Positions 1,490 to 62,000 of a stretch of DNA of 62,000 bases are shown in pieces. The stretch comes from Chiloscyllium plagiosum (lineage: Eukaryota), in NCBI RefSeq assembly GCF_004010195.1, contig NC_057754.1, positions 9,953,562 through 10,015,561 of the forward strand, written 5' to 3'. Positions within the stretch are counted from its first letter, which is position 1. Every line of letters begins with the position of its first letter. Position numbers and translations under genes: made by a program. The notes under the pieces are model-generated. The model saw only the letters and a program-made list of their open reading frames with translations. It ran no database searches and was not told the DNA's origin.

Positions 1490-1650
1490 AAGTGGATACT
1501 GCAGATTCTGGAGATTAGAGTGGTGCTGGAAAAGCACAGCAGGTCAGGTAGCATTCCTGATGAAGGGTGTTTGCCCGAAACGTCGATTTTCCTGCTCCTT
1601 AGATGCTGCCTGACCTGCTGTGCTTTTCCAGCACCACTCTAATCTTGACT
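1490..1650. mobile_element. Palindromic Penelope-like terminal fragment (family A)
   Basis: Inverted arms ~1511-1554 and ~1603-1645 flank a hammerhead-like core at 1557-1584. Confidence 0.75.
1557..1584 (+). ncRNA. Minimal hammerhead ribozyme motif (PLE family A)
   Basis: CTGATGA-A-GGGT-GTTT-GCCC-GAAACGTC: conserved CUGAUGA and GAAA boxes, stem II, ACGU palindrome, GUC triplet. Confidence 0.7.
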
Positions 1651-1973
1651 TAGATTAAGAATCCCTCCAGTGTGAGAACAGGCCCTTTGGCCCAACAAGT
1701 CCACACTGAAACTCTGAAGAGTAACCTACCCAGACCCATTCTCCTACACCTACCCCTGATGAATGCACTTAACCTACGCATCCCTGAACACTATGGGCAA
1801 TTTAGCATGACCAATTCATCTCACGTGCACATCTTTGGATCGTGGGAGGAAACCCTTGCAGACATGGGGAGATTGTTCAAACTCCACACAGACAGTCGCC
1901 CAAGGCTGGAATCGAACCTGAGCCTCTGGCACTATGAGGTAGCAGTGCTAACCACTGAGCCACCATGCCACCC
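1651..1973 (-). mobile_element. HE1-type tRNA-derived SINE
   Basis: Reverse strand starts GGGTGGCATGGTGGCTCAGTGGTTAGCACTGCT (A box) with a GGTTCGATTCC B box and a CR1-like 3' tail. Confidence 0.88.
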
Positions 1974-2789
1974 GAAAGTCTTTCTTGAGAACAAGGCAAA
2001 GACGATAGTTGAGGGCAGAGGGACAGATGTTGTCCACATGAACTTTAGGAGGGCCTTTGGCAAGGTTAGTAAAGCTAAATCACATCAGATCCAGGGACAC
2101 CTTGCCAATTGGATTCAAAATTGGCTTGCTAGCAGGAGATACAGGGTATTAGTGGAGGGTTGTTTTTTGGACTGGAAGCCTATGAGCAGTGGTATTCCAC
2201 AGAGATCGGTGTTCATTCCACTGTCATTTGTTATGTAAATGAATGATTTGGATGTGAATTTAGGAAGCATGGTTAGTAAGTTTGTGCATGAGAACACAAT
2301 TGGATGTAAAGCGAAGTGTGAGCAAGGTTATCTAAGAGGATGATAAGAATTGATCAATTGGGCCAATTTGCTGAGGTTTGGCTGATAGTTTTAATTTGAA
2401 TAAATGTCTGGTATTGCATTTTGGTAAGACAAACAAGGGCAGGACTTACACAGGTGATTGTAGGGCCCTGGGTAGTGTTTTCGAACAGAGAACTAGGGGT
2501 TCAGGTAGAGAGATCCTTGAATGTAGTGTCACAGGTAAAAGTGCGGTGAAGAAAGCATTAGTTACACTTACCTTCATTAGTCAGAGTACTGAGCACAGCG
2601 GCTGGGACATTATGGTTGCAGCTGTAAAGGACATTGGTGAGGCGACTTTTGGAGTATTGTGTCCAGTTCTGGTTGCCCTGTTATCAGAAGGATATTACTG
2701 AATTCAAAAGGTGGCCAGGAAGGACTTACAATGTTGTTACCGTGATTGGGGGGGGTTGAGTTCTAAGGAGAGGCTGGGTGGAATCATAG

Positions 2790-3060
2790 TATCACTGTGC
2801 AGATAGAGTCTGCACTAACTTTTCCAAAAAGAATCCAATCTCACCCAGCCTATTCACATAACCCCACAGTTATCATAGCTAACCCGTTGGGCTTGCACAA
2901 TCCTGGACATTATGGGCAATTTAGCATGGTCAATCCACCTGCACATCTTTGGACTATGGGTGGAGACCAGACCATCCGATACAAACCCACGCAGACACAG
3001 GGAGGATGTGCCAACTCCATACAGTCACCCAAATGGAATTGAATCCAGGATCCCTGGAAA
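2790..3060 (-). mobile_element. Degenerate HE1-related SINE
   Basis: Contains the core GGGCAATTTAGCATGGTCAATCCACCTGCACATCTTTGGACT shared with the other SINE copies. Confidence 0.7.
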
Positions 3061-3814
3061 AGTAAGGCAAGTTCATTCAGCCCTTTAGATTTTGTAGCAG
3101 CTTGATACAACTGAGCTATCTCATAGGCTAGTTCAGAGTCAAGCATTCATAAGTAACAATACACAAAGTAAAATTCCTGAACCAGGGTGACCAAGAATGA
3201 TTTTATGATCCTCATTAGACCCTCACATCTAGTTATAGATTTTAAATTAGTTATTGCTGTGTTGAGATTCTCATACCCTTTCCCCAGAGCTTTACCTTAT
3301 CACTGAATTTCTCAGCAAAGAACACACACTACACCATCGTTTACCATTCATCAGTTTGCCATCAATGGCCATTTCAATGTTTTCTTTTCAATTTCTGATT
3401 AATAGTTTAATATTCATATTGTACATGATGCGATGCAAGGAACTGTCACTGTCCCTTGCAGTGTTTTTTGTAGATAGTTGAGGCAACACTAACTTGGTGC
3501 AGTGTGAAACTAGCTGCTGATTGAGTGAGTACATATGAACTGGTGCTCTGTGCAAATCCAATTTCATCTGATTAGCTGACCTTTCTTAACAAAAGGTAAT
3601 CTGATTAAGGATATAATGTAAATGCAAAGATTGCTTTAAAAAGGAATCAGGAGAGCCAAGATGGTGGAAGGTAAAGCATTAATATGCAAAATTATCTGAA
3701 GCAAAAGGAAACTAGCATTGTATGGAAATAAAGAATAGAAATTAATTCCCAAACTGAGCATCCATGTGTTATTGGTATATTCACCATGTCATTCTCTTTC
3801 TTTTTTTTTTGCAG

Positions 3815-4719
3815 GCAATCTGGTGGCGATTGTGATTCTCTCCCGTGGAAAATGCGGTCTGTCTAAATGTATCACACGTTATCTGGTTGCTATGGCAGTG
3901 GCAGATCTATTTGTGATAATATTTGATGTCATATTGTATGAGATTAAAGGCATATATTTTTCCTATACATTTCTGGACTACACACCCATTTGTAGTCTTA
4001 ATATTGCCCTGGTTTTCACAGCAATTGATTGTTCTGTCTGGCTAACTGTTACTTTCACCTTTGATAGATTGATTGCCATTCGCTGCCAAAAGGTGAGGGA
4101 AAGGTATTGCACTGAAAGAACCGCGACCATAATTATAGCCACTGTGTTTGTATTGAGCATCATAGAAAACATTCCAATCTATTTTGAGAATGAACACCAG
4201 GAAATCATTGACAATATAAAGTGGTTCTGCAGTGTAAAATCAAACCTTTCAAATTTACCGATATGGGTAGCATACTTCTTCTTTGACATTACCTTAACCC
4301 CATTTCTACCATTTGTATTGATCGTGCTGCTGAATGCTTTGACCGTACAGCACATTATCCAGGCCAATGATGTTAGGAAAGGACTCCGAGGAAGCAAAAA
4401 CTGTGATGATCCTAATGACCCGGAGATGGAGAATCGGAGGAAATCGATCATATTATTGCTGGCTATCTCCACCTGCTTTATACTCTTATGGATGATAACT
4501 TTTGTACATTTTGTTTGCACACAATTTGCTGGCATTCAGTTTATGCTTACAGATTATAGTGACCCCTTTGCCATCATGGAACATACTGGATACATGCTGC
4601 AGTGTTTGAGTTCCTGCACAAACACCATTATTTATGCAGTGGCACAGTCTAGGTTCAGAGAAGAATTGAAGAAAATCGTTAAATATCCTTTCACTTTGAT
4701 TAAGTTTGCTTTTTCATAA
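3815..4719 (+). CDS. GPR139-like orphan class A GPCR, 3' coding exon (end of TM1 to C-terminus); short first exon not found in the window
   Basis: Polypyrimidine tract plus AG at 3813-3814 (phase-1 intron); open frame GNLVAIVILSR...LVAMAVADLF (TM2)...FTFDRLIAI (DRY variant)...LTPFLPF (TM5)...CTNTIIY (NPxxY variant)...FREEL (helix 8); TAA at 4717-4719. Confidence 0.88.
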
Positions 4720-4797
4720 TTCTAAAATGAAATGGCACCCAATCTCAGAAGTTAACCAACGTCGATTAAAATATGTTCTCTGAATCCATTGACGAGC

Positions 4798-5223: not shown

Positions 5224-5352
5224 AGAAGTGGGTACTGCAGATGCTGGAGATTAGAGTCAAGATTAGTGTGGTGCTGGCAAAGCACAGCAGGTCAAACAGC
5301 ATCCGAGGAGCAGGAAAATCAATGTTTCAGGTAAAAGCCCTTCATCAGGAAG
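5224..5352 (-). mobile_element. PLE family A terminal fragment inside an old LINE remnant (~5015-5465)
   Basis: Reverse strand CTGATGAAGGGCTTTTACCTGAAACATTG..., a CpG-decayed version of the hammerhead motif plus the family A tail. Confidence 0.75.
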
Positions 5353-11796: not shown

Positions 11797-14230
11797 GGTT
11801 AGACCACTTTTCCAGGTTGAACTCCATCTGCTTCTTATCAGCCCAGCTCTGCATCCTGTCAATGTCCCATTGCAACCTACAACAGCCCTTCACACTATCC
11901 ACAACTCCACCAACCTTCGTGTCATTAACAAACTTACTAACGCACTCTTCCACTTCCTCATCCAAGTCATTTATAAAAATCATAAAGAGCTGAGATCCCA
12001 GAGCCGAGCCCTGTGGAACGCCACTGGTCACCGAGCTCCAGGCTGAATACTTTCCACCAACTACCACCCTCTGTCTTCTGTGGGCCATCCAATTCTGTAT
12101 CCAGATTTCCCTGGGAGAAAGTGAGGACTGCAGATTCTGGAGATGAGAGTCGAGAGTGTGGTGCTGGAAAAACACAGCAGGTCGGGCAGCTTCCAAGGAG
12201 CTGGAGAATCGATGTTTCAGGCATAAGGCCTTCATTAGGAATTCCTGATGAAGGAATTGTGCCCGAAACGTTGATTCTCCTGCTCCTTAGATGCTGCCTG
12301 AGCTGCGTGCTTTTTCCAGCACCACACTCTCAAGCCAGATTTCCCTGTATCCTATGTCTCCTTACTTTCGGAATAAGCCTACCATGGGGAACCTTATCAA
12401 ACACCTTGCTAAAATCCATCCACTGTTTACCTTCATCGGGTTTTGTCACATCCTCAAAGAATTCAATAAGGTTTGTGAGGCATGACCTGCCCCCCCCCCA
12501 AAGCCATTTTGACTATCTCTATGCTTTTCCAAGTAATCATAAATCCTGTCTCTCAGAATCCTCTCCAAAAGTTTCCCCAACACTGACGTAAGACTGACTG
12601 GTCTGTAATTCTCAGGATTATCACTATTCCCTTTCTTGAACAAGGGAATAATATTTGCCACCTTCCAATCATCTGGTACTACTCCAGTGGACAGTGAGGA
12701 TGCAAAGATCATCGCCAAAGGTGAAGAAATCTCTTCCCTCACTTCCTGTAGTAACCTTGGGTACATCCCATCTGACCCAGGGGATTTATCTATCCTTAGG
12801 TTTTTCAAAATTTCAGCACATCCTCCTTCTGAGCAATAATCTGTTCTAACATATCAGTCTGTTACACGCTATCCTCTGAAACATCAAGGACCCTCTCAGT
12901 AGTGAGTACTGAAGCAACGTATTCATGAAGGACCTCCTCTACTTCCTCCAACGCAGGGCTTAAATTCCGTCCACTAACCCTGATTGGCCCTACCCTCACT
13001 CTGGTCATCCTCTTGTTCCTCACATACATGTAGAACACCTTGGGGTTTTCCTTAATCCTATCTGCCAAGGGTTTTTCATGCCCCCTTCTAGCCTAAGTCC
13101 AATCTTCAGTTCCTTCCTGGCTACCTTGAAGCTCTGTCTGAACCCTGCCTCCTCAAGCTTCTTTCTTCCTTTTGACTGGATGTTCCACATTCCTTGTCAT
13201 CCAAGGTTCCTACCATCCATTCCTTGCCTCAGTGGGACAAATCTGTCCAGCACTATCAACAGGAGCTCCCTAAACATCCTTCACATTTCTATTGTGCATT
13301 TTCCTGAGAAAAGCTGTTCCCAATTTTTGCACTCCAGATCCTGCCTAATCCACACTGTAATTCTCCCTCCCACAATTAAAAACTTTCCCATACTGTCTGT
13401 TCCTATCCTTCTCCATGAGTATCGTAAAGGTCATGCAGTTGTGATCACTGTTAGTGAAATGCTCTCCCACTGAGAGATCTGATATCTCTCAGCACCAAAT
13501 CCGATATAGCCTCCCCTCTCGTCGGCATATCTACATATTGCGTCAGAAACACTTCCTGGCCACATCTTACAAAAACTGCTTAATCCAAACTATTTGAACT
13601 AAGTACGTTTCATTCAAGATGAGGGAAGTTAAAGTCACCCATGACAACAACCTTTTTACTTCCAAAATCTGCCTCCCAATCTGATCCTCCGTGTCTGTAT
13701 TGCTACTGGGGGGGAGGGGCGGGGTGGTGCTGTAGAAATCTCCCAATAAAGTCACTGCTCCTTTCCTGTTTCTAACTTCCACCCATACTGACTCTGTAGA
13801 CAATCCTCGATGATCTCGCTTTCTGCAGCTGTCATACTATCTCTGATTAGCAATGCCACTCCTTCACTACTTTGACCTCTACCCCTATTCCTTTTGAAAC
13901 ATCTCAACTCTGGAACATCCAACAATCATTCCTGCCCCTATGATATCCAAGTCACCATAATGGCCACAACATCATAGTTCCAAGTACTGATCTATGTTCT
14001 GAGTTTGTCATCCTTGTTCCTGATACTTCTTGCATTAAAATGACACACTTCAACCCATCACACTGACTGCAGCTTTGCCGTATCAAGTCCCTATCCATCT
14101 TTACAGACTCTCTGCATGCTGTATCTGGCTGTTCATTACCTACTCCATCCTCGGATCCTTAGCTCCAGTTCCCACTCCCCTGCTAATCTAGTTTAAACCC
14201 TCCTGGTGAGCTTGGCAACCACCTGCCTGG
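11797..14230 (-). mobile_element. CR1 ORF2 (endonuclease-RT) fragment
   Basis: GVPQGSALG, KSPGSDGMYPRLL, NYRPVSLTS and ESVWVEVRN motifs in minus-strand ORFs. Confidence 0.88.
12114..12334. mobile_element. Palindromic PLE family A insertion with 13-bp TSD
   Basis: TSD CCAGATTTCCCTG at 12101-12113 and 12335-12347; two back-to-back hammerhead motifs around the centre GGAATTCC (12238-12245). Confidence 0.85.
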
Positions 14231-14394
14231 GATATCGGTGTCCCTCCCATTCAGATTAAAATTGATGTCAGAAGCCAAACTTTGATTTATGAATTAATTC
14301 ATAATCATCTGCCATTTCTGCTGAAGTTATAACTCTATGCCCTACTCTGTGAGTTCTCACTACTAGTTCTCACTAGTGAATTTAGAACTCCTCG

Positions 14395-15320
14395 GGAGCA
14401 CCTGATGCAGTAAGTGAGGATTGGAGGAGAGGCAGATGAATGTCTGCCTCACCTGGAAGGATTGTTTGGGGCCCTGGATGGAGGTGAGGGGTTGGTGTAC
14501 TGGCAAGTTTTGCATCTTTTCCGGTTGCAGGGGAAAGTACTGAGGGGGGCTGGAGAGGTTTGGTGGGGACAGTGGCGTGAACCAAAGATTGGCGAAGCAA
14601 TGGTCCTTGTGGATGGCAGAGAGTGCTGGGGAGGGGAAGATGTTCTTGGGGTCTAGTTGGAGTTGGCAGAAGTGATGAGTCCGATGTGGAGATTGGTGGT
14701 TGCTAGGTGAGGACAAGGGGGAGACTGTCTTTATAACGTTTGGAGGAGGGGTATTAGAGCAGTGGAGTGAGGATTGGAGGTGGTGCGGCTGACGGCTGTC
14801 TAGATGACAGAGGGAGGAATAACGCGTTGTTCGAAATAGTTGGACATGTGGGATGCTTGGGAGTGGAATGCCCCCTCATCTGAGCAGATGCAACGGAGCA
14901 ATTGAGAAAACGGGGTGGAGGTCTTGCAGGACAGTGGGTGGAAAGAGGTGTAGTCCAGGTAGTTATGGGAGTCTGTGGGTTTACAGTAAATGCTCGTCTG
15001 GAGGCTGTCGCCCGAGATGGAAATGGGGAGGTCAAGAAAGTGGAGGGAGATGTCCGAGATGGACTAAGTGAATTTAAGGACGGGGTGGAAGTTGTGGGTG
15101 AAGTCGATAAACTACTCCCCTTCAACCTGGGTGCAGGATGTAGCTGTCACTAACCCACCACCCGTCCCTCTCCTCACCCAAAACCCTTCGCCACACCCCC
15201 CTCCCAACTTTATCTTCAGCTCCCCTTACACCCACCCCCAGTCCTGAAAAGGTTTGACTTCTCCAACCTCTGATGCTGCCTGGCTTGCTGTGTTCTTCCA
15301 GCCTCCTGCTTGTCTAACTT
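14395..15320 (-). mobile_element. Penelope-like element RT/linker fragment with inverted terminal piece (15110-15320, +)
   Basis: Minus-strand frames give FHPVLKF..SISDISLHFLDL, YCKPTDSHNYLDY and FPCNRKRCKTC (PLE RT thumb and Cys linker). Confidence 0.8.
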
Positions 15321-15447
15321 TGTTTGAATCAGCAATACTCATTTGGCCAGTTGCCAATTCATTTGCTTATCTCAAAAGATATGAAAAAGGCTTCTCACCC
15401 TTCTTGTCAAACGTTGGCGATGCTTGGATATATTTAAACAGATCCAT

Positions 15448-15717
15448 GATGCGGAGGAGCCGGAGTTGGGTTGAGGTGGACAACGTTAGAAATCACACAA
15501 CACCAGGTTACACACAGAGGGTGGTACGCATATGGAATGAGCTGCCACATTGTTGAGGCAGGAACCTGAGGGGCAACGTGCTAGCTTTCAGAGCGTCGCT
15601 CCTTCTTCAGGGAGCTCGTCAACCTCACTAGCTACCTGACAAAGGAGCGTGGCTCCGAAAGCTTGCACTTCCAAATAAAGCTGTTGGACTATAACCTGGT
15701 GTCGTGTGACTTTTAAC
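15448..15717. mobile_element. Palindromic PLE family C insertion with 14-bp TSD
   Basis: TSD TTAAACAGATCCAT at 15434-15447 and 15718-15731; inverted hammerhead motifs at 15582-15610 (-) and 15636-15664 (+). Confidence 0.8.
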
Positions 15718-15891
15718 TTAAACAGATCCATCAGGCCTTTGGTTACCATGGGTTTGCTCTTCATCATTGTCCTCATCACTATTCCCACATTTTCCTTTAC
15801 CTCCGTCATTTTAAGTTGACTTTCACTTTTTATTGCCAACCTCCGAAGTTCAACATCTCTCTCTGTATCCCTTTCTTTTGCCAAGGCTGGT

Positions 15892-18690: not shown

Positions 18691-19044
18691 ACAGCTACCG
18701 GCAGCATTCTATTGTGTTTCAGTTTTGATATAATAAGGTGGGATTCGAGGTTCATCCTCATTTTCCCTGTGAACTGGCTGTACGGTGGGGTTTGGGGGTC
18801 TGACTTTGCTGCCCCTTTCCCCTGTAAATTGCTGCTTTTTGTAAACTGCTATTCATTGTTAACTGTTCAGTCATAATTTGTACTGGTTAATAAAAAAAGG
18901 ACAGTTTTATTCTCACACGCTGTTTATCGCCAGTCCAGAAGAAAGAAACAATCTACCCCTTTTGATTTTTTTAAGTGGAAGCCTCACTGTCTAAAACTTA
19001 AATGTAGCAGCCAGGAACTCAAGCTTTTAACTCATCGTCCAGAT

Positions 19045-20505
19045 TGTTGACTTGCTCACTGAGCTGGTAGGCTTGCTCACAGACGTTTCATCATCATTCT
19101 AGGTAACATCATCGGTGAGCCTCTGCTGAACCATTGGCATGCTGTCCTGCTTGCTATGTATGTGTCTGGGTCTGCTGGGCTGGGTGGCATCCTTTTCAGT
19201 TTTGGTGCCATTTCTGTTCATTTGTGGTTGGTGTATGGGGTCCATCTCTACATGTTTGTTGATGGAATTCTGGATTGAATACCAGACTCCTAAGAATTCC
19301 TGTGCATGTCTCAAGCTGGCTTGTCCCAGGATGGATACATTGCCCCAGTTGAATTTTGATTGTTCATGTGTATGGATACAAATGAAAACTGGTCATGTTG
19401 TTTGGTGGCTACTTAGTGTTTGTGTACCCCGGTGGCTAATTCCCTTCCTGCTTCCCGTATATAGCGTTTCTGGCAATCTTCACATGGTATTCTGTATATA
19501 ACATTAGTTCTGCTAGTTGTGGGTATGGGATCATTTGTACTTGTTAGCAGCTATCGTAGTGTGGTAGTTAGTTTGTGGCCTACCATAATACCCGGGGTTG
19601 GAATAGCCTGGTGGTCATTTCTGATGTGTCTTTAATGTCTGGCAGTGTGGCCAGTTTGTCTGGACGTGTTGTCGCTTCCCATTGTGGACTGTCAGGTAAG
19701 CATCAATGGACTATGCTTTTTGGGCACCCGTTGTTTCTGAGAATGTTGTGTAAGTGTTCTTTTTTGGCTTTGCACAGCTCCGGGGTGCTGCAGTGTGTCC
19801 CGGCTCGCTTGAACAATGTTCTGATGCAGCTCCATTTGTGGGTTTTGGGATGGTTGCTGTTGTAGTTGAGTACTTGGTCTATATAGGTGGCCTTCCTGTA
19901 TACACTGGCCTGGAGCTTCCCATTGGTCTTGCATTCAACCATTACGTCTAGGAATGGAAGCCAGTTGTAATTCTCTTCTTCCTTGGTGAACTTCATGCTG
20001 GTAAGGATGTTGCTTATGAGTTGATGGGTTTCCTTTAGCTGCCCGCGTTTGATAATGACAAAGATGTCATCCATATAGCTGATCCACAGTTTAGGCTGGA
20101 TAATGGGCAGAGGTGTCTGTTCTAGTCTGTGCATGACAGCTTCTGCTATTAGTCCTGATATTGGAGATCCCGTGAGTATGCCGTTGATTTGTTCATATAC
20201 CTGGACAACGTATCCATCCTAAAACAAGCCAGATAGCGACATGCACTGGAATTCCTGGAAGCCTAGCACTCAACACGGAATGCCATGAACAAACATGTAG
20301 AGTTGGACCTCATACACCAACCACAAAGGAACAGAACCAACAACAAAACCAGAAATGATGCCATCCAGCCCAGCAGACCCAGACATCTAAATACCAAACA
20401 GGACAGCACACCAACACTTCACTGGAGACTCACTGATGATGTTACCACAATGGTGACTAAACATCTGAGAACAAACCTACCAGCTCAGCGAGCAAGTCAA
20501 CAATC
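19045..20505 (-). mobile_element. Penelope-like element (family D): RT plus GIY-YIG remnant, with inverted terminal repeat 20207-20505 (+)
   Basis: ORF 19703-20134: PKLWISYMDDIFVI...LPFLDVMV...VYRKATYIDQVLNYNSNHP; ORFs 19099-19314 (-) and 20285-20695 (+) share NKHVE.D.IHQP, showing the inverted duplication. Confidence 0.9.
20429..20469 (+). ncRNA. Hammerhead ribozyme motif (PLE family D), mutated
   Basis: CTCA-CTGATGA-T-GTTACC-ACAAT-GGTGAC-TAAACATC-TGAG: stems I and II pair; GAAACGTC altered to TAAACATC. Confidence 0.6.
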
Positions 20506-21797
20506 TCAATCTTTTGTTTCAGTAAAAGTCAAACACCCAGGGAGAACTCAGAAGCTGTTTACCAACTTTCCGTCTGAAGGAGACATTCTGTTACCACTGT
20601 GGCAAAACCTCTCTGCAAGAGAAGCAGCACAGGACAGATTGCTCTTAAAGGCACATTACCGTCACACTTTCCCCATCACCCTTGGAGAGCGCTAGCTGGT
20701 AAGTTCACTGGTAAAGCATCAGAATTACGATGCAGCCATACGGCTGCAGCAGGGTTAAGGAACAGGTTCGAACAAATCACTGTTTACAATGTAGGCCAAA
20801 AGATAGTGCAGACACTCATTCAAAAACTGTTCAAAGTTTTTACTTTCCAGGAGGGTGCTGAAGGAGATGACGGAGAGGTTTTGATGGAGAGTTCCAGAAC
20901 ACGATGCCTCGTGAAATATATTCGCACATCCCTGCTATCCTCCTCTCAATCCTTTTCTGCAACTTAATGAGGTTACTTCTGGGCAACATCCTCATTTCAT
21001 GGTCCCAGGTATATTCTATAAACTGCAAAGTCCTCAGCCCAAAAAAATGCTGTTTTCCTGTTTTCACTTGAGAGCCCAGCTTCAGTGGGAATTCCCAGGA
21101 AATTCCAGCTTCATCTGACCTTTGTCCGACAACTGCTTCCTCACATCACCTGAAACAACTTTGTGCTCATTTCCTTGTTGTTTTGGTCTTCCCAGGGAGG
21201 ACAGTATGTTGCTGTGCACCATCTAATCCCTTAATCACTCAAATAGGAAGGACCAAGACCATCAAAACTCACACAAATCCAAGACTACAAGAGCATTGGC
21301 AATAGACGCAATGGACTGAATGGCCTCATTTCATGCCTTAAGCATTCTTTGACTCTCATCTGTTCTATTACTTCTAGAAGCTTAGGAACAGACCAATATG
21401 CCATTCAACCCCTTAAGCATGTTCCACTAGTCAATGAGATCATGGCTGATCTGTAATCTAAATACACCTGCCATTGGCCCATTTCCCTTAATACCATTCT
21501 TTAATGAAGAAAATCTAGCTCAGATTTAAAACTAATAACAGACCTAGCACCAGTTGTGGACAAGAATGCCAAACATACACACCCTTTGTCTATAGAAGTG
21601 CGTGCTAGCATCTCTTATGAATGGCCCTAATTCTCAGACTATACACCTAATTCTAAAATCCCCAAACAGTGGAAATAGTTTCTTTATCTACCTTGTCTTT
21701 TGCTGTTAACATCTTGAAACTTCGATCTGATCACCCTTAACCTTCCAAATTCTGGAGAAATTATGCCTAATTTGTATAATTCCTCCTCATAACTTAG

Positions 21798-22016
21798 GAG
21801 AAAGTGAGGACTGCAGATGCTGGAGACCGGAGTTGAAAAGTGTGGTGCTGGAAAAGCGCAGCAGGCCAGGCAGCATCCGAGGAGCAGAAGAATCGACGTT
21901 TCGGGCATAAGCCCTTCTTCAGGAATGAGGGCTTATGGAGAAGGGCTTATGCCTGAAACGTCGATTCTCCTGCTCCTCGGATGCTGCCTGGCCTGCTGCA
22001 CTTTTCCAGCACCACA
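21798..22016. mobile_element. Palindromic PLE family A insertion with 15-bp TSD
   Basis: TSD CTCCTCATAACTTAG at 21783-21797 and 22017-22031; arms ~21840-21918 and ~21938-22016 nearly perfectly complementary. Confidence 0.88.
21895..21922 (-). ncRNA. Minimal hammerhead ribozyme motif, best-preserved copy
   Basis: Reverse strand CTGAAGA-A-GGGC-TTAT-GCCC-GAAACGTC. Confidence 0.75.
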
Positions 22017-23289
22017 CTCCTCATAACTTAGCCCATGAAGGTATCATTCTTGTAAATTAACCTTGCACTCCCTTCAACGCCAATATATCCTTCCTATGGT
22101 GTGGTCCCCAGAACTGCTCACAGTACCCCAAGTGTGATCGAAGCAGAGTTTTGTATAACTGCAGTACAACTTATGCATTGTTGTATTCCTGTCCCAAGAT
22201 ATAAAGGCCACCATTCAATAGTTTTCTTGATTATTTTCTGACATTTTAAAGATCTACACATCTGAACCCACCAGTCTCTTTGGACATCCACTATATTTAA
22301 CTTCATAAGATCTAAAAAGTTACCTGATATATCCGTTTTCACTCCAAATGGATAACCTCACACTCACCTACATTAAACTTCATCGGCCATATTTTTGTCC
22401 ATTCACTTCCCTTTGTAAGTTTATGGTATTATTGACAGTGTCACCAGCAAATTTGGATACGTGACTTTCAATACAAATATCTCAGTCGTTAATAAATAAT
22501 GTGCATAACTAAGGAACTTTACACAGATCCTTGTAGGACACCTCTGGTCACATTGCTCCAACTTGAGTACCTACCTATTATTTCTACTTTCTATCGCCTA
22601 ATGCTCAAACAATTCCCCAGCCATGTCAGCAGTTGGCTTCAGTTCGATAGGCTTCGATCTCAGAGAACAGTCTTGAGCATGGATTCTTTTCAAATGCTAC
22701 TAGAAATCCATATATAGATATTCCATTGTCCACTGTTTTCGTCACCTCTGCAAAAAATGAGGTTTGTCAGCTATGACCGACCTTTTAGAATTAGATTTTA
22801 TTGTCACCTGCCTTGAATCCATGCTAGCTCTCCCTGATAAACTGAAAAATTAATGTGTTCAGTTACCCCTTCCTTAATTATAGACTCCGACAATTTCCCC
22901 ATCACAGATGATGGCTACCTTGTCTGCACTTGACCAGTTTTCCTCTTTCACACTTCTTAAAAAGATGGAGTGGCATGTGCAATTCTCCAATCCAGAAGGA
23001 CATCTCCTGTATCGAGGGAAGTCTGAAAGATTATAGTTGTGGCCTCTGCAATGTGCTTCCCCTGGATGGAAATTGCCAGGTCCGGTTGATCGGTCACTCT
23101 TTGATTCCATTAATGTTCTCATTATCGATGTTTTTATTCAGTCCCTGTTCCCGAGCCACCATTCATTTCTTTGGGTCTTCCTCCTTTTCTACTGGAAATG
23201 CTGAGGCAAAGTAACTACTCAACATACCTGCCATTTCCTAATATTCATTCCCCACTTTTAATACTGAGTGGGCCAACAATATTGAGTAG

Positions 23290-24234: not shown

Positions 24235-25350
24235 AAACAAAAAAGCAAAAGAACCGCAGATGCCGGAAAACAGAAACAAAAACATAAATTACTGGAATAA
24301 AGTAAACAGATTTGGCAATATCTGTGGAAAGAAATCAGAGTTAACATTCCGGGTCCAGTGACCCTTCTTCAGAACTGATGGTAGTTGGTTTTAATGCAGT
24401 CAATAGGGTGGTGAGAGGTAACAAGGTGTAAATGATAGGTGGAGATAGAGCCCAAAGAGAGAGAAGGAGAGTTGGACAGACAAAGGAATGGTTCACTGTC
24501 AGCCTGGGAGAATGGATAGCTGCTCAATGGGGACAATTCGTGGCTAATAGTGGGTTGTGGGTAATAGCAGACCATGTGATATCAAGGTCTGGTGTGTGGG
24601 GTTGGGGGAAGGACATGGGAGATGGTGCTTCAAGCCCTAAAACTGTTGAACTCAATATTGAGTCCAGAAGGCTTTAGAGTTCCCAAGCAGAAAATGAGGT
24701 GTTGTTCTTCCAGCTTGCACTGAGCTTCACTGGAGCAAGGCTGAGACAGAGATGTTGGCCAGGGAACAGGGTGAGGTGTTGAAGTGGCAGGCAACTGGAA
24801 GCTCAGGGTTTTTTTTTTGTGGGCAGAACATAGGTATTCTGCAAGGCGGGCACCCGGTCTACGTTTTATTTCCCCAGTGTAGAGGAGACCACATTGTGAG
24901 CAGCGAATTTAGTAAATGGTATTGGGAGAAGTACAGGTAAAGCACTGTTTCACCTGGAAGGCGTGTTTGAGGCCTTGGATATTGAGGAAGGAGGGAGGAA
25001 ATAAATGGACAGGTGTTACACCTTCTGTAGTTGCAGAGGAAGGTGCTGTGTGGCTCTCAGATGGAGTGTTGGGAGTGAAGGAGAAGTGGGCTGGAGGAAA
25101 TAATCCTTGAGGAAGGCTGACAAGGGATGGGAGGGGAATATGTATCTAGGGGCATCCCACTAGAGGTGACAGAAACAATGACCAATAATCCTCTGGATGT
25201 GGATGCTGGTGGGGTGGTAGGTGAGGACAAGGGGGAGAGGAGTTGTGGGCTGAATTGCAGGAGATAGGTCAGACCCAGCTGAGGGCCCTGTCAACTACAA
25301 CACTGGGGAATCCTTATTTAAGTATAATGGTGGACATTTTGGAGCCTCCC
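24235..25350 (-). mobile_element. PLE family B, 3' part (GIY-YIG remnant and terminal repeat)
   Basis: Reverse strand has YIGE-like TGGTCTCCTCTACACTGGGGAA and a terminal AGTT-CTGAAGAAGGGTCACTGGACCCGGAATGTT-AACT hammerhead-like motif (24339-24376). Confidence 0.75.
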
Positions 25351-26515
25351 GTTGTCAAAGTTAAAAATCACACAACACCAGGTTATAGTCCAACAGGTTT
25401 AATTTCAGAGCGCCGTTCCTTCATCAGGTGGTTGTGGAGTTCACAATTATAAGACACAGAATTTATAGCAAAAGTTTACAGTGTGATGTAACTGAAATTA
25501 TACATTGAAAAATACCTTGATTGTTTGTTAAGTCTCTCATCTGTTAGGATGACCATGATAGTTTCGCTTCTTTCATATGTAAATCACAAAACTCTTCTTA
25601 AAAGTTACATTCTCAGGTTAAATGTAACAATTGGTGTCAGCCCAGATAAGATGTTGAAGGTGTTAGCCCCCTGTGTTTTGTTGTCTGTGCCATAATGTTT
25701 AGACTGATTCTAATCTAAAAAATGAGTTAACAGAGTCTTACATGGATATATGCAGTTTTGAGCAAAGTACAATGTAATTCTGCAAGTACAAATTCACCCC
25801 ACAAATGTATATGTGTGCATGTGGGTTTTTTTTGTGTGTATGTCTGTAGTGGGGAGTTGTGAGTGTCTGTGAGAGAGCATGTATATGTGTGTGTGTGCAT
25901 GAGTGTAAAGGGGACTAAGTCTGTGAGAGGGTGCATATGTGAGTATGGGGAGTGTGTTGTCTGTAGGAGTGCGTATGTGTGTGTCTGGGGTGGGGGGTTG
26001 TGTGTTTGTGAGAGAGTGTATATGTGTGTGAGTGTGAAGTGATTTAAGTTTGTGAGAGGGTGCATGTTTGTGTGTGTATAGTGCAATGGGGGTCACCTAT
26101 GGTGTGACATGAACCAAAGGTCCCGGTTGAGGCCCTCCCTATGGTTACCGAACTTAGCTATCAGCCTCTGCTCGACCACTTTTTGTTGCTGCCTGTCCCG
26201 AAGTCCACCTTGGAGGATGGTCACCCTAAGGTCCGAGGTTGAATGTACTGGACCACTGAAGTGTTCCCCAACTGGGAGGGAACACTCCTGTCTGTTGATA
26301 GCTGTGCAGTGCCCATTCATCTGTTGCTGTAGCCTCTGCTCGGTTTCACCAATGTACCTTGCTTCAGGGCATCCTTGCCTACAGCATATGAGATAGACAT
26401 CGTTGGCTGAGTCGCATGGGTACCTGCCACGTATATGGTGGGAAGTGTCCCCATGTGTAATGGTGGTATCCATGTCCACAGTCTGACACATCTTGCAGCG
26501 CACGTTAGAGAACAG
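25351..26515 (-). mobile_element. PLE family C, GIY-YIG endonuclease C-terminus, (CA)-rich region and terminal repeat
   Basis: RCKMC...NDVYLICCRQGCPEARYIGETEQRL...VGEHF...EQRLIAKF in ORF 26093-26983; (GT)-rich tract 25810-26085; CTGATGA motif at 25421-25427 (-). Confidence 0.88.
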
Positions 26516-38380: not shown

Positions 38381-38384
38381 GCCT

Positions 38385-41780: not shown

Positions 41781-41782
41781 AA

Positions 41783-41863: not shown

Positions 41864-44239
41864 AAGTCACCGTGGATCCCATGCATCTTAATTGTCTGGA
41901 CAAGCCTACAATGTGGGACCTTGTTGAAAGCCTTACTAAAATCCATGTAGACAACATCCAGTGTTCTACCCTCGTCAATCACCTTCGTCACCTCCTATAT
42001 CAAAATTCAATCAAATCAGTAAGTCATGACCTGGCCTGTAAAAAGCTATGCTGTTTCTAATTAGGCCATGCTTTTCCAAGTGTGCATAAATCCTATCCCG
42101 AAGAATTCTCTCCAATAGCTTCCCAACTATTGATGAGACTCACTGGTCTATACTTTTCTGAGTAATTCCTTTTCTCTTCTTGAACAGAGGAACAACTTTA
42201 ATTATTCACCAGTCCTCCGGGACCTCTCCAGTGGGTAGCAACGATACAAAGATCTTGGTCAAGGCCCGGCAATCTCCTCTCTTGCCTCGCTCAATAACCT
42301 GGGGCACGTACCATCGGGTCCTGGGGAATTATCTACTTCAATGCTACTCAAGAGACCCAACACCACTTCTTTCTTGATCTCAACATGCCCTAGCACATTC
42401 AGGTCACTGGACGCAAACCATCAACTCTGATTTCTCTTCACAAATGGCTTCAGGCCTGCTCAGCTTTTCCAGCAATTTCTGGTTTTGATCCCAGCATTTT
42501 GACATGCTCACTAATCTCACTGTCCTCCATATCCTTCTCCTGGGTGAATACCGATGCAAAATACTCATTTCGGATCTCGCCACATCCTGTGCTTCCAAGC
42601 ACAAGTTCCCTCTTTTATCCTTGATTGGTCCTACCTTCTCCTTAGTTATCCTTTTGTTTTTAATGTATGTATATAGAATGCCTTGAGATTCTCTCTAACA
42701 CTACTTGGCAAGGTCATTTCATGGCCCCTCCTTGCTCTCCTAATTCCCTGCTTTCTTTATATTCCTCATGGGCCCTGATGGATTTTAGCTTCCTAAACCT
42801 TACATATGGTTTTTTTTTCCCTTTTGACTAAATTCACTAGCTCCGTCATTATCCAAGAGTCCCTTACCTTACCATCCATGTCCTTCCTCCCTTATTGAAA
42901 CATGCTGGTCTTCAACTTTGACCGGAAGGTCTTCAAACCATGCCTACATATTAAATGTGAACTTGCCTGATAACAGCTCTTCCAATTAACACTCCCTAGC
43001 TTCTGCCTAATTCTGATGTAATGTGCCTTTCCCCAAGTTAGCTTCCTACAAAGCTCTGACTTATTCATAGCTCTCTAAAAGCTTAAGGAATTGTAATCAC
43101 TGTTTCCAAATGCTCTCCCACTGAAAAGTCAGTCATCTGACCAGGCTCATTAGTTTCAGTATAACCCCTCCTCAAAGTGGACTACTCACGCACCTTTTCA
43201 AGAAACCCTCTTGGATGCCCAGTCTACGGTCTGAAGAAAACCCAGTCAATATTGGGGAAGTTAAAGTCCCCCCACTATGACAATCCTGTTGTAATTGCAT
43301 CTTTTCATGATCTGCTGTCATATCTTTTCTTCGATGTCTCAGTGGTTGTTGAGGGGCCTATAGTATGATCCTATCTAAGTGATTGTACCCACCTTATTTT
43401 TGAGCTCGACTCATATTGCTTCAGTGGATGGACCCTCCAGTATGTCCCCGCTGAGTGCAGATGTGACATTGTCCCTAATTAGTAATGCATATCTTCCACC
43501 TCTTTTACCTCCCTCTCTATCTTGTTGGAAGAAATGAAACCTGGGAACATTCAGCATCCAGTCCTGTCCCTCTCTCAACCATGTCTCTGTAATGGCCACA
43601 ATATCTTAGGGCCATGTACTGGTCCAGGCTCTAAGCTTCTCTGCCTTACCTATAATATTGCTTGCATTGAAATAAACCCACTTCAGTCCATTTGCACCAT
43701 CATGTTCATTTACCTGTCTGCCTCTCCTTCCTTTCTGATTTACTGATCCTAACATCTACCTTCCCCTCAATCCCTCCACCTGCTGACCTACTGCTCTGGT
43801 TTCCAGCTCCCTGCCACTCTTGTTTAAACTCTCTTGTGAAATTGCAACAAAAACTCTGTGGACTTGATTTCCAGTTAAAATGTTCACATGAATGAGAATG
43901 TTCAGTGTGATCAAATCCCTGCTTGATAGTGTCCCTACCTCTTGGCCAGAAGATCTGGTTTCACTCCCATCTGCCATCCAAACAGTTTGACTTTTTTATT
44001 GATGTGTCATGTACATTGGGATCTGTTTCTGCTGAAGTTAATGAACTCCAGCTCAGTTAAAGGGACTCCCATTCTAGATGACAGTGAAATAAACACACTT
44101 TGTGTTAAACACTCTATATTGAATATTTTTAATCTCATCAGCACAAGTTAATGGAACATATGTTCCAAGGCATTGATTACATCTCAGATACTATCAGAAA
44201 AGCAAACATAGAGCTGTGGATACTAGAAACCTGAAACCG

Positions 44240-48002: not shown

Positions 48003-51000
48003 TGAAGTCAAAAATCACATGACACCAGGTTGTAGTGCAATAGGTTTACGTGAAACCGCAAGGATTCGGAGCCCCAGCTCCCTCTTCAGGCAGCTCATGA
48101 GACAGAATACATCAGACACAGAATTTATAGTAAAAGATCAAAGGGTCATACAATTTATACAAATGTATTGAACAATCCTAGATGGCTATTAAGTCTCTAA
48201 TCAATTAGAATGGAGGTACAGGTTTCGATATATTCGGCATGGACAGGTTGGACCAATAGGTCTGTTTCCATGCTGTACATCTCTATGACTCTATAAATCC
48301 CTGCCGCAAAATAATTTCAGGTTTTATCAGAATAAAGGTGACACCTTAGGTTAAACAATGCATTTTAGGTGTGAGGCCATGTTTCAAGTCTGTTTGTATC
48401 TCATCCTGGAGCCGTACTGGTTCTATTTCCGAAACAGGAATTTATAAAATGTCACTCTGACTGACTGTCTACGGATTGTGTGCCTTTTGAACAAAATAAA
48501 ATGTGTCTGCAAATATGTGCAAGGGGAGTGGAGACAGTGCATGTGTGTGTGAGGGTGTGTATGTGAGGGAGACAGTGTGGGTGTGTAAGTGCGCATGCTG
48601 TTGAGAGAGAGAGTGTGTGAGAGTCATAGAGATGTACAACACAGAAACAGACCCTTCGGTCCAATTCGTCCATGCTCGACCAGATATCCCAACCCAATCT
48701 AGTCCCACCTGCCAGCACCCGGCCCATATCCCTCCAAACCCTTCCTGTTCATATACCCATCCCGATGCCTTTTAAATGTTGCAATCGTACTAGCCTCCAC
48801 CACTTCCTCTGGCAACTGATTCCATACACGTACCATTCTCTGCGTGAAAAAGTTGCCCCTTAGGTCTCTTTTATATCTTTCCCAATTGCACGCAATATTC
48901 CAAATGTAGCCTAACCAATGTCCTGTATAGCTGCAACATGACCTCCCAACTCCTGTACTCAATACTCTGACCAATAAAGGAAAGCATATCAAATCAAACG
49001 CCTTCTTCACTATCCTATCTACCTGCGACTCCACTTTCAAGGAGCTATGAACCTGCACTCCAAGGTGTCTTTGTTCAGCAACACTCCCTAGGACCTTACT
49101 ATTAAGTGTATAAGTCCTGCTCTGATTTGCTTTTCCAAAATGCAGCACCTTGCTTACATCTAAATTAAACTCCATCTGCCATTCCTCAGCCCACTGGCCC
49201 ATCTGATCAAGATCCCGTTGTAATCTGAGGTAACCTTCTTCACTGTCCACTACACCTCCAATATTGGTCTCTTCTGCAAACTTACTAACCATACCTCCTA
49301 TGTTCACATCAAAATCATTTATATAAATGATGAAAAGTAGAGGACGCAGTACCGATCCTTGTGGTACTCCACTGCTCACAGGCCTCCAGTGTGAAAAACA
49401 ACCCTTCACCACCACCCTCAGTCTTCTACCTTTGAGCCAGTTCTGTGTCCAAATGGCTAGTTCTCCCTGTATTCCATGAAATCTAACCTTGCTAACCAAT
49501 TTCCCATGGGGAACCTTGTTGAACGCCTTACTGAAGTCCATATAGGTCACGTCCATCGCTTTGCCCACATCAATCCTATTTGTTACTTCTTCAAAAAACA
49601 CAATCAAGTTTGTGTTACATGATTTCCCATGCACAAACTAATGCTGACCATCCCTAATCAGTCCTTGCCTTTCCAAATACATGTACATCCTGTCCCTCAG
49701 GATTCCCTCCAATAAGTTGCCCACCACCAACGTCAGATTTACTGGTCGCTAGTTCCCTGGCTTGTCCTTACCACCTTTCTTAAACAGTGGCACCACATTA
49801 GGCAATCTCCAGTCTTCCGGCACCTCACCTGTGACTATTGATGATATAAATATCTCAGCAAGAGGCCCACCAATCACTTCTCTAGCTTCCCACAGAGTTT
49901 GAGGGTACACCTGATCAGGTCCTGGGGATTTATCCACCTTTAACCGTTTCAAGACATCCAGCACTTCCTCCTCTGTAATCTGGACATTTTGCAAGGTGTC
50001 ACCATCTATTTCCCCACATTCTATATCTTCAATGTCCTTTTCCACTGTAAACACTGATGCAAACTACTCAGTATCTCCCCATCTCCTGTGGCTCCACACA
50101 AAGGCTGTCTTGCTGATCTTTGAGGGGCCCTATTCTCTCCCTAGTTACCCTTTTGTCCTTAATGTAATGTATTTGTAAAAACCCACTGGATTCTCCTTAA
50201 GTCTATTTGCCAAAGCTATCTCATGTCCCCTTTTTGCCCTCCTGATTTCGCTTAAGTATACTTCTACTGTCTTTATACTCTTCTAGGGATTCATTCAGTC
50301 TATCATGTCTATACCTGACATATGCTCCCTTCTTTTTCTTAACCAAACCCTCAATTTCTTTAGTCACCCAGCATTCCCTATATCTACCAGCATTTCCTTT
50401 CACCCTAACAGGAATATATGGTCTCTGGACTCTGGTTATCTCATTTCTGAAGGCTTCCCATTTTCCAGCCGTCCCTTTACCTGCGAACAACTGACCCAAT
50501 CAACTTTTGAAAATCCTTGCCTCATATCATCAAAATTAGCCTCCTTCTAATTTAGAACTCCAACTTTTAGATCCTGTCTATCCTTTTCCATCACTATTTT
50601 AAAACTAATAGAATGATGGTCGTTGGCCCCAAAGTGCTCTCCCACTGACACCTCAGTCACCTGCCCTGCCTTATTTCCCAAGAGGAGGTCAGGTTTTGCA
50701 CCTTCTCTAGTAGGCACATCAAGGAATTGAATCAGAAAATTTTCTTGTACACACTTAACAAATTCCTCTCCATCTAAACCCTTAACACCAGTCTATGTTT
50801 AGAAAGTTAAAATCCCCTACCATTACCACCCTATTATTCTTACAGATAACTGAAATCTCCTTACAAATTTGTTTCTCAATTTCCTGCTCACTATTATGGG
50901 GGCTATAATATAATCCCAATAAGGTGATCATCCCTTTATTTCTCAGTTCAACCCAAATAACTTTCCTGGATGTATTTCCGGGAATATCTCCCTCAGTACA

Positions 51001-51779: not shown

Positions 51780-52270
51780 ATAATCGTAGCTCGGCCCCGC
51801 CCCTCTTTCATTCCGATTGGCTGGAGGACCAGTGATCTGGCTCAGACCTCCAGCCGCGCCACCCACCTTCTCTTGGCTGGGAGCTGAGCATGCGTTATAC
51901 GAGGCTTAGGGCTGAAACATCGCAGTGCCGGCGAACTGGTCTGCCGGGTGAGTGGAGCGGACAGGCGCCGGTGATTCTGTTGGACGGCAACGCTCAAAGT
52001 TCGCATAAGAAACTCCAGATTCGGCGTTTGTCAGTTGCAGGTTTGCCTCAGACAACAGGCCCCGAGTTAAGGGCTTGTGCCCGAAACGTCGATTTTACTG
52101 CTCCTCGGATGCTGCCTGAACTGCTGTGCTCTTCCAGCACCACTGATCCAGAACCCGAGTTAACGGCCGCCGGGGTTGAGAGCGCGCACATAGCCGCCAT
52201 CTTTAATGAGAGCACGGCTCTGCAGAACGCATGCGCGGCACCGAGCGTCATGGAAGCTGGCAAACCCGGA
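51780..52270 (+). promoter_or_regulatory. CpG island promoter and non-coding first exon of the downstream ZNF
   Basis: GC box 51795-51803, ATTGG 51816-51820, NRF1-like TGAGCATGCG ~51885 and CGCATGCGC ~52228, YY1-like GCCGCCATCTT 52193-52203; consensus donor CGG|GTGAGT at 51947/51948. Confidence 0.75.
52071..52153 (+). mobile_element. 83-bp PLE family A fragment with 10-bp TSD
   Basis: TSD CCCGAGTTAA at 52061-52070 and 52154-52163; insert starts at hammerhead stem II (GGGCTTGTGCCCGAAACGTC). Confidence 0.85.
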
Positions 52271-53095: not shown

Positions 53096-53148
53096 AGTCA
53101 GAAACCAGAATAGGCCAAGAGGGTGATTCCAGGTTTAATTTAGTTTGA

Positions 53149-53372
53149 GTTGAAAAGTGTGGTGCTGGAAAAACACTGCAGGCCAGGCAGCATCCAAAGA
53201 GCAGGAGAATCGACATTTCTGGCATAAGCCCTTCTTCAGGCCACACTTGGGCTTATGCCCGAAACGTCGATTCTCCTGCTCTTTGGATGCTGCCTGGCCT
53301 GCTGTTTTTTTCCAGCACCACACCTTTCAACTCTGGTCTCCAGCATCTGCAGTCCTCACTTTCTCCTAGTTC
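53149..53372. mobile_element. Palindromic PLE family A insertion with ~11-bp TSD
   Basis: TSD ATTTAGTTTGA at 53138-53148 and 53373-53383; arms ~53149-53231 and ~53249-53331. Confidence 0.85.
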
Positions 53373-54490: not shown

Positions 54491-54639
54491 ACATGGTACA
54501 GGACACCCAGAAAGAGTTTTAGCCAGTTTAACACAACACCGTGAAAACATCACACCACAGTGGGGTGAAACCTGTCCTGTACCTGACCAAAGCTCGAGCT
54601 TATATTTCAACTAGGAAATCCACAAGGATTTCCTGCATC

Positions 54640-59867: not shown

Positions 59868-59995
59868 GTGAAGGGCTCCTGCCTGAAATGTCGATTTTCC
59901 TGCTTCGTGGATGCTGCCTGACCTGCTGTGCATTTCCAGCACCACTCTAATCTTGACTCTAATCTCCAGCATTTACAGTCCTCAAGTTCGCCTTC
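59868..59995 (+). mobile_element. PLE family A terminal fragment
   Basis: GTGAAGGGCTCCTGCCTGAAATGTCGATTTTCCTGCT...CCAGCACCACTCTAATCTTGACT. Confidence 0.78.
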
Positions 59996-60780
59996 AAAAA
60001 AATGATGACCATTATAGAACTGAAACTAAAACCCACCTATCTCCACCCTAAAAATCCAGATGAAAACAACTCTTAGTTAGACATTCATGCGATACCAGTG
60101 TCATGGGCATTACCTACAGTTGATTGCCATGTCAATCAGTCCTTGAATTACTTGCTAGGCACTTTCAGAGGACATTTAAGAGTCAACTACATATCTGTAT
60201 AGGCCAAAACATGTGGGACAGATCAGGTAAGGATAGCAGATTTCTTTCCCTAACATTTTATTGAGTCAGCTATTCGGTTGTCCATCTTGCTGAAACATAA
60301 GAAAGATTACAATGGGCAATGACCATTCACCAACTACACATGTTGAAATTAATTCACTTACCTATTCCATCTGTTGAGACATAAGCGACATCACAAGTAA
60401 CTACAGTTGCAAATGTAATATCTCAGATATTTTTTATTTCTTTTTGAAATGTTCTCACTCTTCCCCCACCACCCCATCCTCACCTCTGACAATAAATGAG
60501 AGGAGCTTCTGCAGCTTCTCTGTCACTAATATTAAAACAGTCCAATCAGCTCCTCTGGTGTTCCCCACAGCTCCACTAGGTACAAGGCCTTCTTAACCAA
60601 AACCAGAATTCAGATCTTTCTGCAATTATTGCCTGCCCAGTCAGGGATCACCTTGTCCATGAGGTCCACATTTTCAGCTTCATTGGCCTTATTCGCATTA
60701 AACTACCAATCATCCAATTTCCCAATGCTTACTGATACTATTATTGATCCTCTCTCTTTTCTAGCTCTATCTCCGTATTT

Positions 60781-61105
60781 TTAGATTAGATTAGATTAGA
60801 TTACTTACAGTGTGGAAACAGGCCCTTCGGCCCAACAAGTCCACACAGACCCGCCGAAGCGCAACCCACCCATTCCCCTACATTTACTCCTTTTACCTAA
60901 CACTACGGGCAATTTAGCATGGCCAATTCACCTAACCTGCACATCTTTGAACTGTGGGAGGAAACCGGAGCACCCGAAGGAAACCCACGCAGACACGGGG
61001 AGAATGTGCAAACTCCACACAGTCAGTCGCCTGAGGCGGGAATTGAACCCGGGTCTCTGGCGCTGTGAGGCAGCAGTGCTAACCACTGTGCCACTGTGCC
61101 GCCCA
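60781..61105 (-). mobile_element. Young HE1-type SINE
   Basis: CpGs largely retained; (TTAGA)n tail on +; flanking CCGTAT repeats at 60773-60778 and 61106-61111. Confidence 0.92.
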
Positions 61106-61274
61106 CCGTATCCTTGTGATTCATCATCATCAGCCACTCTCAAAAATATAATCCTTGATCCCATCTTCTACACATATTATTGTCTAATCTCAGACCTCAT
61201 TCCTTCCGTGGTGTCCTCCTTGCCCCCTCTTATTCCTCATCTACACGCTGCCATGAGGTGACATCATCCAAAAG

Positions 61275-61752
61275 CACATAGAACATAGGACAGCACAGCA
61301 AGAGAATGGGCCCTTTGGCCCACAATATTGTGCCAAACATGATGCCAAATTAAACTGATCCCTTCTGCGTAGCTGGTCCCTACACCTCCATTGCTTGCAT
61401 ATTCAAGTGCTTGTCTGCAAGACCCCTTAAACACCCCTATCTTATCTGCCTCCACCTTCAGCCCTGGCAGTGTGTTCCACATTCCTACCACTTTGTGTAA
61501 AAAAAGTGCCCCTCACATCTATTTTGAATTTTCCTCCTCCCACCTTAAATGGATGCCTCTTGCTATTAGACATTTCAACTCCGGGGAACATATTCTGACT
61601 GTCAACCCTATCTATGCATCTCATAATTTTATAGACTTCTATCAAGTCTTTCCTCAGTCTCCACCTAAGTTTTACTAGCCGCTACTGATTGCTCATAATC
61701 TCTAAGCAAGGCAGCATCCTGGTAAACCTCTCCAAAGTATCCACATCCTTTA
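61275..61752 (-). mobile_element. CR1 3' fragment
   Basis: IEVYKIMRCIDRVDSQ in ORF 61442-61645. Confidence 0.85.
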
Positions 61753-61754
61753 GG

Positions 61755-62000
61755 GTGTAGGTTTACTCACTGAGCTGTAGGTCTGATATCCAGATGTTTC
61801 ATTACCTGGCTAGGTATCATCATCAGTGGCGACCTCCAAGTGAAGCGAAGCTGTTGTCTCCTACTTTCTGTTTGTCCTGGATGGGATTCCTGGGGTTTGT
61901 GGTGATGTCATTTCCTGTTCGTTTTTTGAGGGGTTGATAGGTGGTATCTAGATCTGTGTGTTCATTTATGGTGCCATGGCATGTCTTTGCTTAGCCTGAC
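61755..62000 (-). mobile_element. PLE family D-related terminal repeat (runs off the window)
   Basis: Reverse strand CCA-CTGATGA-T-GATACC-TAGCCA-GGTAAT-GAAACATC-TGG at 61790-61829. Confidence 0.7.

Follow-up and report, generated by a model that had tools for sequence, protein, structure and literature searches.

Minimal hammerhead motifs in the window and their host elements

The stretch of DNA analysed here (the window) comprises 62,000 nucleotides (nt) of the shark Chiloscyllium plagiosum (contig NC_057754.1, positions 9,953,562 to 10,015,561 of the forward strand, assembly GCF_004010195.1) and holds copies of five repeat families, named A to E, that carry small ribozyme motifs. Judged by sequence, these motifs are minimal type I hammerheads, now decaying, in the pseudo-long terminal repeats (pseudo-LTRs) of Penelope-like families, one Poseidon-type (D) and four Neptune-type (A, B, C, and E). 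The 5′ ends of the Neptune-type copies pile up at the ribozyme, and we lean towards the view that most short copies were made from uncut RNA whose 5′ end is the front of the ribozyme; both the RNA start and the state of cleavage are what we infer.

A sequence-only reading of the window had listed 11 sites and described more than a dozen copies in four families. All 11 sites were found in the sequence, seven of them on the minus strand, where the coordinate given is the far end of the motif. With natural family copies as BLAST queries, 21 copies cover the core (nine of family A, three of B, four each of C and D, and one of E); the copy number therefore stands, but the families number at least five, E having been missed. 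A strict descriptor (intact core CUGANGA, one extra base, at least three of four stem II pairs, GAAA and NNUH) matched five window sites, compared with 0.08 on average over 100 dinucleotide-shuffled sequences, and 13 compared with 2.9 when one mismatch was allowed. A descriptor without the extra base failed to pick up the window motifs. Most copies are mutated, as had been stated: core, stem II, and palindrome are all kept at only three of the 11 sites (1557, 21895, and 15582), and 1557 is itself a mutated variant with a TTTT loop. Stem II is broken at 12245 and 28044, the core is altered at 24339 and 15636, and among the family D sites three have an altered core while the fourth (61790) has a decayed stem II and palindrome. 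The stems quoted in that reading are typical of their families but not literally present at each site. It had also named the Rfam hammerhead models as a check. These models expect loops, which the minimal form lacks, and run on the window they gave no hammerhead match at E ≤ 1; the scan returned only five sub-threshold microRNA-hairpin matches, all on inverted pairs. No head-to-tail tandem array of hammerhead units was found in the window.

The placement of minimal type I hammerheads in Penelope-like terminal repeats was borne out by open reading frames (ORFs) for reverse transcriptase (RT) and GIY-YIG endonuclease upstream of the motifs. Searches of the shark's own genome with the RT frame and the GIY-YIG remnant of the window gave 30 loci each. 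Family D typically has its strict motif about 570–600 nt behind the RT match in most of the 30 loci, and inverted upstream copies are common; in family C the motif follows the endonuclease match, mostly at 400–1,300 nt, and upstream there is often an inverted copy. When a Neptune RT piece was the query, 22 of the 30 loci retrieved carried the family A motif 1.0–1.3 kb downstream. Families A, B, and E have Neptune-type zinc finger and GIY-YIG remnants upstream of the motif, E being reached via a third window remnant (14380–15140). In translation, families A, B, C, and E possess a CxxxxCxxC-type cysteine linker between RT and endonuclease, a Neptune feature, and family D combines an RT and a GIY-YIG domain at the C-terminus without the linker zinc finger with an ORF that begins in the repeat, a Penelope/Poseidon feature. 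The clade names should be read as provisional, since they follow such motifs rather than a tree; the family D RT matches Pfam RVT_1 below the cut-off.

The extra base of family D is U, and A9, this U, and G10.1 form an AUG that opens 549 codons in locus L123 and 195 in L125. Locus L123 contains two direct family D motifs 2503 nt apart; a seeming splice acceptor before the upstream motif of L125 proved to be sequence of the inverted copy. Several long open frames in Neptune loci were runs of N, and Neptune matches to residues 230–249 of the L126 protein were dropped as coming from a family A insert in that locus. The pyrimidine-rich 3′ region that immediately precedes family A repeats often contains N runs (L131, L295, L301, and other Neptune loci), and such assembly gaps indicate that full-length elements are under-assembled. 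In the TTAT form of family A (L204, from position 8468) an AUG lies in the stem II loop and the frame, inspected by eye, is open and hydrophobic through the tail; this AUG may be the Neptune start codon. Diverged Neptune-like motif variants outside the five families occur at L166:3260, in L211, L247, and others, and at L230:4172–4289 on the minus strand a 36-nt stretch of the family E repeat that lacks the ribozyme is repeated in a short tandem array.

Abundance and structure of the motifs

Abundance was estimated from 100 stretches, each 10 kb long and placed at a round-number position, on 40 contigs (C1–C40), which together hold 958,450 bases other than N. This sample contains 291 family copies and 97 strict motifs, or 101 per Mb (bootstrap 79–123), and in 39 of the 97 the palindrome, the whole of stem II, and two stem I pairs are present. 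Within the first 60 stretches there were 50 strict motifs against a shuffle mean of 1.25. Extrapolated from these contigs to 3.56 Gb, the genome is estimated to hold 3–4 × 10^5 core-intact (strict) motifs and about 10^6 copies. Repeat parts make up about 4.6% of sampled bases (44,362 of 958,450), so that transcripts of the animal likely carry many motifs in both orientations.

The core CUGANGA...GAAA...UH is present in family-typical copies and broken in most individual window copies. In 573 kb, 50 strict matches have the extra base between positions 9 and 10.1 and six lack it. Stem II opens with G10.1–C11.1, or its decayed G–U form, in all families and otherwise varies between them in length and sequence. 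Helix III is loopless and palindromic, reading ACGU in 52 of the 97 strict matches, AGCU in 12, and one of the two CpG-decay forms of ACGU in 27. The stem I pairs 2.1–1.1, 2.2–1.2, and 2.3–1.3 are CG/UA/U.U in family A (UA in one subfamily), UA/UA/GC in B, CG/UA/GC in E, CG/AU/CG in C, and AU/CG/GC in D1. Stem I thus covaries between families, with three pair types at both 2.1–1.1 and 2.2–1.2, which agrees with the earlier claim that stem sequences differ while pairing is kept. The stem I positions lay outside the search patterns, and the within-family counts for stem II are biased by them. The commonest form of D1 (loci L002–L029) has an A.G mismatch in stem II (38 of 47 copies); in L018 and L125 single copies pair fully there, and the region also codes the first ORF residues.

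Dimer dependence would follow from the loopless stem III and has been published for this class, with low activity. In the inverted pairs the motifs lie on opposite strands, so no dimer can form within one transcript. The sequence-only reading had gone further and proposed obligate-dimer ribozymes whose ACGU or AGCU palindrome would restrict dimers to compatible families; that the palindrome was selected to stop cross-dimerising strikes us as improbable. Modelled heterodimers of C with another family do keep only two of the four helix III pairs and are far less stable than homodimers (A/C −0.3 kcal/mol, against −10.5 for A/A and −17.7 for C/C, in a simple evaluation), as such a filter would have it. 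ACGU is, however, common to A, B, D, and E, so that only C is set apart, and in the model heterodimers A/B, A/D, and B/D helix III pairs fully while the core-adjacent stem I pair fails in one or both halves; in the model, then, the first stem I pair already keeps A, B, and D apart. (The dimer results omit the rows for E and D2, the one being a mutated representative and the other a duplicate of D1.) The supplement of Cervera and De la Peña (2014; PMC4209133) lists CG, GC, UA, and AU palindromes, CG and GC both within Schistosoma mansoni, as expected from compensatory drift, and there is no evidence of RNAs from different families meeting. The filter idea is a weak one, and nothing here points to selection of the palindrome for that role.

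Many copies begin at the front of the ribozyme

Ends were counted on 235 uncensored Neptune-type copies, with positions given relative to the first core base. The 5′ ends of 138 of them fall within −15 to +15, peaking at −9 to +2, a 6.8-fold excess over the flanking zones (31 ends per 1000 nt at risk against 4–6). The zone was set on the first 60 stretches, in which the excess was 7.4-fold; in the 40 held-out stretches it was 6.3-fold. By family, the zone takes 78 of 127 ends in A, 30 of 52 in B, 23 of 39 in C, and 7 of 17 in E, compared with 4 of 18 in D. That this hotspot is no artefact of the reference sequences used follows from three observations: 71 of the 138 ends are pinned by an adjoining inverted partner; upstream of single hotspot copies lies ordinary flank rather than element (pyrimidine share 0.46 against 0.75 in family A); and 26 of 92 single short copies have a flanking duplication, two of the 26 being a tandem array, against none of 150 mismatched controls.

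Most copies (199 of 235) extend through the predicted cut site. An apparent peak of 5′ ends at that site (eight family A copies, +29 to +32) mostly dissolved on inspection into two internal deletions, two diverged relatives, one ambiguous case, and three plausible ones, of which two can also be read as stem I microhomology.

The 3′ ends of families A and C form two groups some 35 nt apart, at about +85–95 and +120–128, and in RNA reads of another species those of family D fall at two positions 37–38 nt apart. Head-to-head pairs of A and C have one long and one short arm in 36 of 45 cases. The commonest product is a single insert of about 100–130 nt or a pair of about 220 nt with ends piled at the ribozyme. 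An initiator-like YYANWYY with its A at −3 overlaps helix I in 25 of 44 copies of A, 23 of 26 of B, and 11 of 16 of E. In the same RNA reads, depth rises about 20–40-fold at the core start, where opposite-strand joints are also found, and family D reads are biased several-fold to one strand along the ORF, which, depending on the orientation of the library, may reflect sense transcription.

How the short copies may have arisen

Under the reading we favour, the element RNA would start at about helix I, at the ribozyme. The element protein would nick both target strands, and each end would then serve as primer for reverse transcription from either of two sites, about 90 and 125 nt past the core, as seen in vitro for the Anolis element. 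Such start sites would also lie in the upstream repeat, near the mRNA start, so that copying would often begin there and run off the RNA end after 100–130 nt, and extension of one or both target strands would give single short inserts or head-to-head pairs. The RNA template would be uncut, the ribozyme being slow and in need of a partner RNA and probably of the element protein too. Cleavage would strip some 30 nt from the front of the mRNA, and with them the start codon in family D, and would for that reason act on translation and not on the shape of the template.

Several observations weigh against an RNA start at the ribozyme. The 5′ ends scatter across about 30 nt with no single preferred base, and in Poseidon-type D the excess is just 2.9-fold (p 0.05, 25 copies). 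The initiator-like motif is absent at −3 in C (0 of 27), D1 (0 of 31), and D2 (0 of 13), yet C has the hotspot; A, B, and E, being related, do not count as three separate instances. Read-through over the many short genomic copies would by itself produce the depth step at the core start, which is no evidence for a start site, and families A and D showed no position in the RNA reads of the other species where many molecules begin or end, while a second read set gave no alignments; the reads of the other species confirm the structure of the copies, not the start site. A search of 50 loci turned up no full-length Neptune copy that had a direct repeat upstream. For 12 of the 235 ends the predicted cut site is no more than 3 nt away, so that cut RNA may now and then have served as template. 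The counts themselves are limited in that the ends given by BLAST may be off by a few bases and the tally misses part of the copies below about 45 nt.

The breadth of the hotspot, and its occurrence in family C, would be accounted for as well if a longer read-through RNA were the template and reverse transcription stalled or jumped where the ribozyme is folded or has protein bound. In Anolis, cutting by the ribozyme requires the element protein, which suggests that protein affects this region (Frangieh et al., 2024; PMC11167929). Such a block would, though, be encountered first where the fold has its 3′ edge (+29 to +35), and ends there are near background (5.7 per 1000 nt over +16 to +45, against 31 in the hotspot), with the peak at −9 to +2; we consider this explanation less probable than an RNA start at the ribozyme, though still a serious contender. 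Less probable again, and in our estimate distinctly unlikely, is the published model (PMC4209133) in which tandem ribozymes cut a precursor and the unit, circularised or linear, serves as a cut template. The direct pair in L123 could dimerise in cis, and a few copies begin near the cut site, as this would predict; nevertheless, the 199 copies that extend past the cut site to end a little upstream of the core are not what it leads one to expect, a circle giving no end there, and uncut RNA was the dominant substrate in the Anolis system (PMC11167929). Antisense self-priming, favoured by Arkhipova et al. (2013; PMC3846280), does not account for the fact that single copies with target duplications have this hotspot too.

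Our preferred reading can be extended, though only as a speculation that we hold to be doubtful. In vertebrate Neptune elements helix I might also be the transcription initiator and the ribozyme the first structure of a capped mRNA; cleavage dependent on dimer and protein would then remove the cap and so switch translation off, and priming within the upstream repeat, with run-off where the capped RNA ends, would have spread the ~10^6 ribozyme-only inserts.

Copies and neighbouring sequence in the window

The coordinates of the window copies are collected in Table 1. Elsewhere, an intact-looking single-exon frame of 326 codons (3739–4719, plus strand) encodes a rhodopsin-family G protein-coupled receptor (Pfam 7tm_1, E 2e-20), and arrays of C2H2 zinc fingers with 84-nt periodicity lie on the minus strand at 54532–56397 and 30597–31217 (about 17.6 and 4.7 repeats). 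RT fragments of long interspersed nuclear elements (LINEs), which we take to be CR1-type, are located at 9493–9903, 11717–12853, 31745–32137, 41578–41994, 44770–45875, 48699–49637, and 57478–58254; one family A pair (12112–12328) is inserted among them.

Table 1. Copies and remnants of the five Penelope-like families in the window (., no single strand).
Feature	Position	Strand	Remarks
Family A (Neptune-type) inverted pair	1499..1650	+	Intact motif on + from 1557; short inverted arm 1499–1555
Family A single copy	5226..5351	−	Begins 2 nt before core
Family A head-to-head pair	12112..12328	.	Long and short arm; 13-bp target duplication; both motifs mutated
Family E Neptune-type RT thumb and GIY-YIG remnant, broken	14380..15140	−	
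Family E inverted terminal repeat	15186..15322	+	Absent from the sequence-only reading
Family C head-to-head pair	15453..15719	.	Minus-arm core 15610 intact; plus-arm core 15636 mutated; foreign repeat piece at ~15511–15580 splits minus arm
Family D Poseidon-type insertion	19040..20506	−	Inverted repeat 20203–20506 (+); terminal repeat with motif at 19115; broken RT and endonuclease from 20218 to ~19102 (−), broken RT frame 19703–20218
Family A head-to-head pair	21797..22018	.	15-bp target duplication; intact minus-strand motif at 21922
Family B (Neptune-type) 3′ end with terminal repeat	24240..24758	−	Motif at 24372 mutated
Family C insertion	25356..26500	−	Neptune-type zinc finger and GIY-YIG remnant 26093–26500; motif at 25427
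Family D inverted pair and Poseidon-type endonuclease pieces	26888..27329	.	Motif at 27002 (−) mutated
Family B single short copy	27943..28075	−	Begins 1 nt before core
Family B copy	32548..32827	+	
Family B short copy	42402..42487	+	Begins within stem II
Family C copy	48005..48149	−	Motif at 48089
Family A short copy	52069..52153	+	
Family A head-to-head pair	53146..53366	.	One long, one short arm
Family A short copy with tail	59869..59992	+	
Family D copy	61752..61873	−	Motif at 61826 decayed

Relation to known systems and significance

Minimal hammerheads in the pseudo-LTRs of metazoan Penelope-like elements were described by Cervera and De la Peña (2014), whose sections considered here already report the extra base, both palindromes, and covariation, with no cleavage of monomers and low cleavage of dimers. 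The shark motifs share with that class the core CUGANGA-N, G10.1–C11.1, the loopless helix III, palindromic 15.2–16.2, and the short helix I, as well as the presence of several covarying families in one genome, mostly as single truncated copies, with opposite-strand pairs and predicted low-activity dimers. They differ in number, 3–4 × 10^5 extrapolated motifs here compared with ~4,000 in coelacanth and ~9,000 in Xenopus, counts obtained with different descriptors. Supplement file 2 of that paper contains no shark, and its examined sections do not describe a hotspot of 5′ ends. Motif, location, covariation, and dimer logic are thus already published, and any novelty would lie mostly in the end statistics; a literature search, with Repbase and most subscription journals outside its scope, found no shark report and no end hotspot.

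For the Poseidon element PAc of Anolis carolinensis, the parts of Frangieh et al. (2024) drawn on here report an ORF that starts at stem II, two internal reverse-transcription start sites that define the tail, nicking and extension of both target strands, use of uncut RNA, and a ribozyme that needs the element protein. Family D resembles PAc in layout at the level of sequence, with the ORF starting from stem II in both, while the run-off hotspot is strong in the Neptune-type families and weak in this PAc-like family. Inverted 5′-truncated copies, a tail of 30–40 bp at one end, target duplications, head-to-head palindromes, and an initiator-like motif in the repeat all recall the structures in the consulted portions of Craig et al. 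(2021) and Arkhipova et al. (2013; PMC3846280). The pairs of long and short arms would be the known one-end tail and fit the two start sites and two-strand priming of the Anolis element. Unlike the Penelope insertion structures described in those portions, the minimal ribozyme-only form is the commonest here. Internal promoters and initiator-like motifs in Penelope repeats have been reported for Drosophila and rotifer elements. Non-LTR retrozymes (bioRxiv 10.64898/2026.07.22.740005), described as non-coding derivatives of Penelope repeats with type I hammerheads and including one cartilaginous fish, are head-to-tail arrays, whereas the window copies are single or inverted and so do not qualify as retrozymes.

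The function of the hammerhead in endonuclease-bearing Penelope elements is described as unclear in the literature covered here. The high copy number in this shark lets insertion ends be counted, and these ends argue against cut RNA as the main template. They point instead to an RNA start at the ribozyme, which yields one sharp prediction for 5′ end mapping. If helix I is indeed the initiator, the genome would hold a record of both the uncut template and the RNA start, and the function of the Penelope hammerhead would become directly testable.

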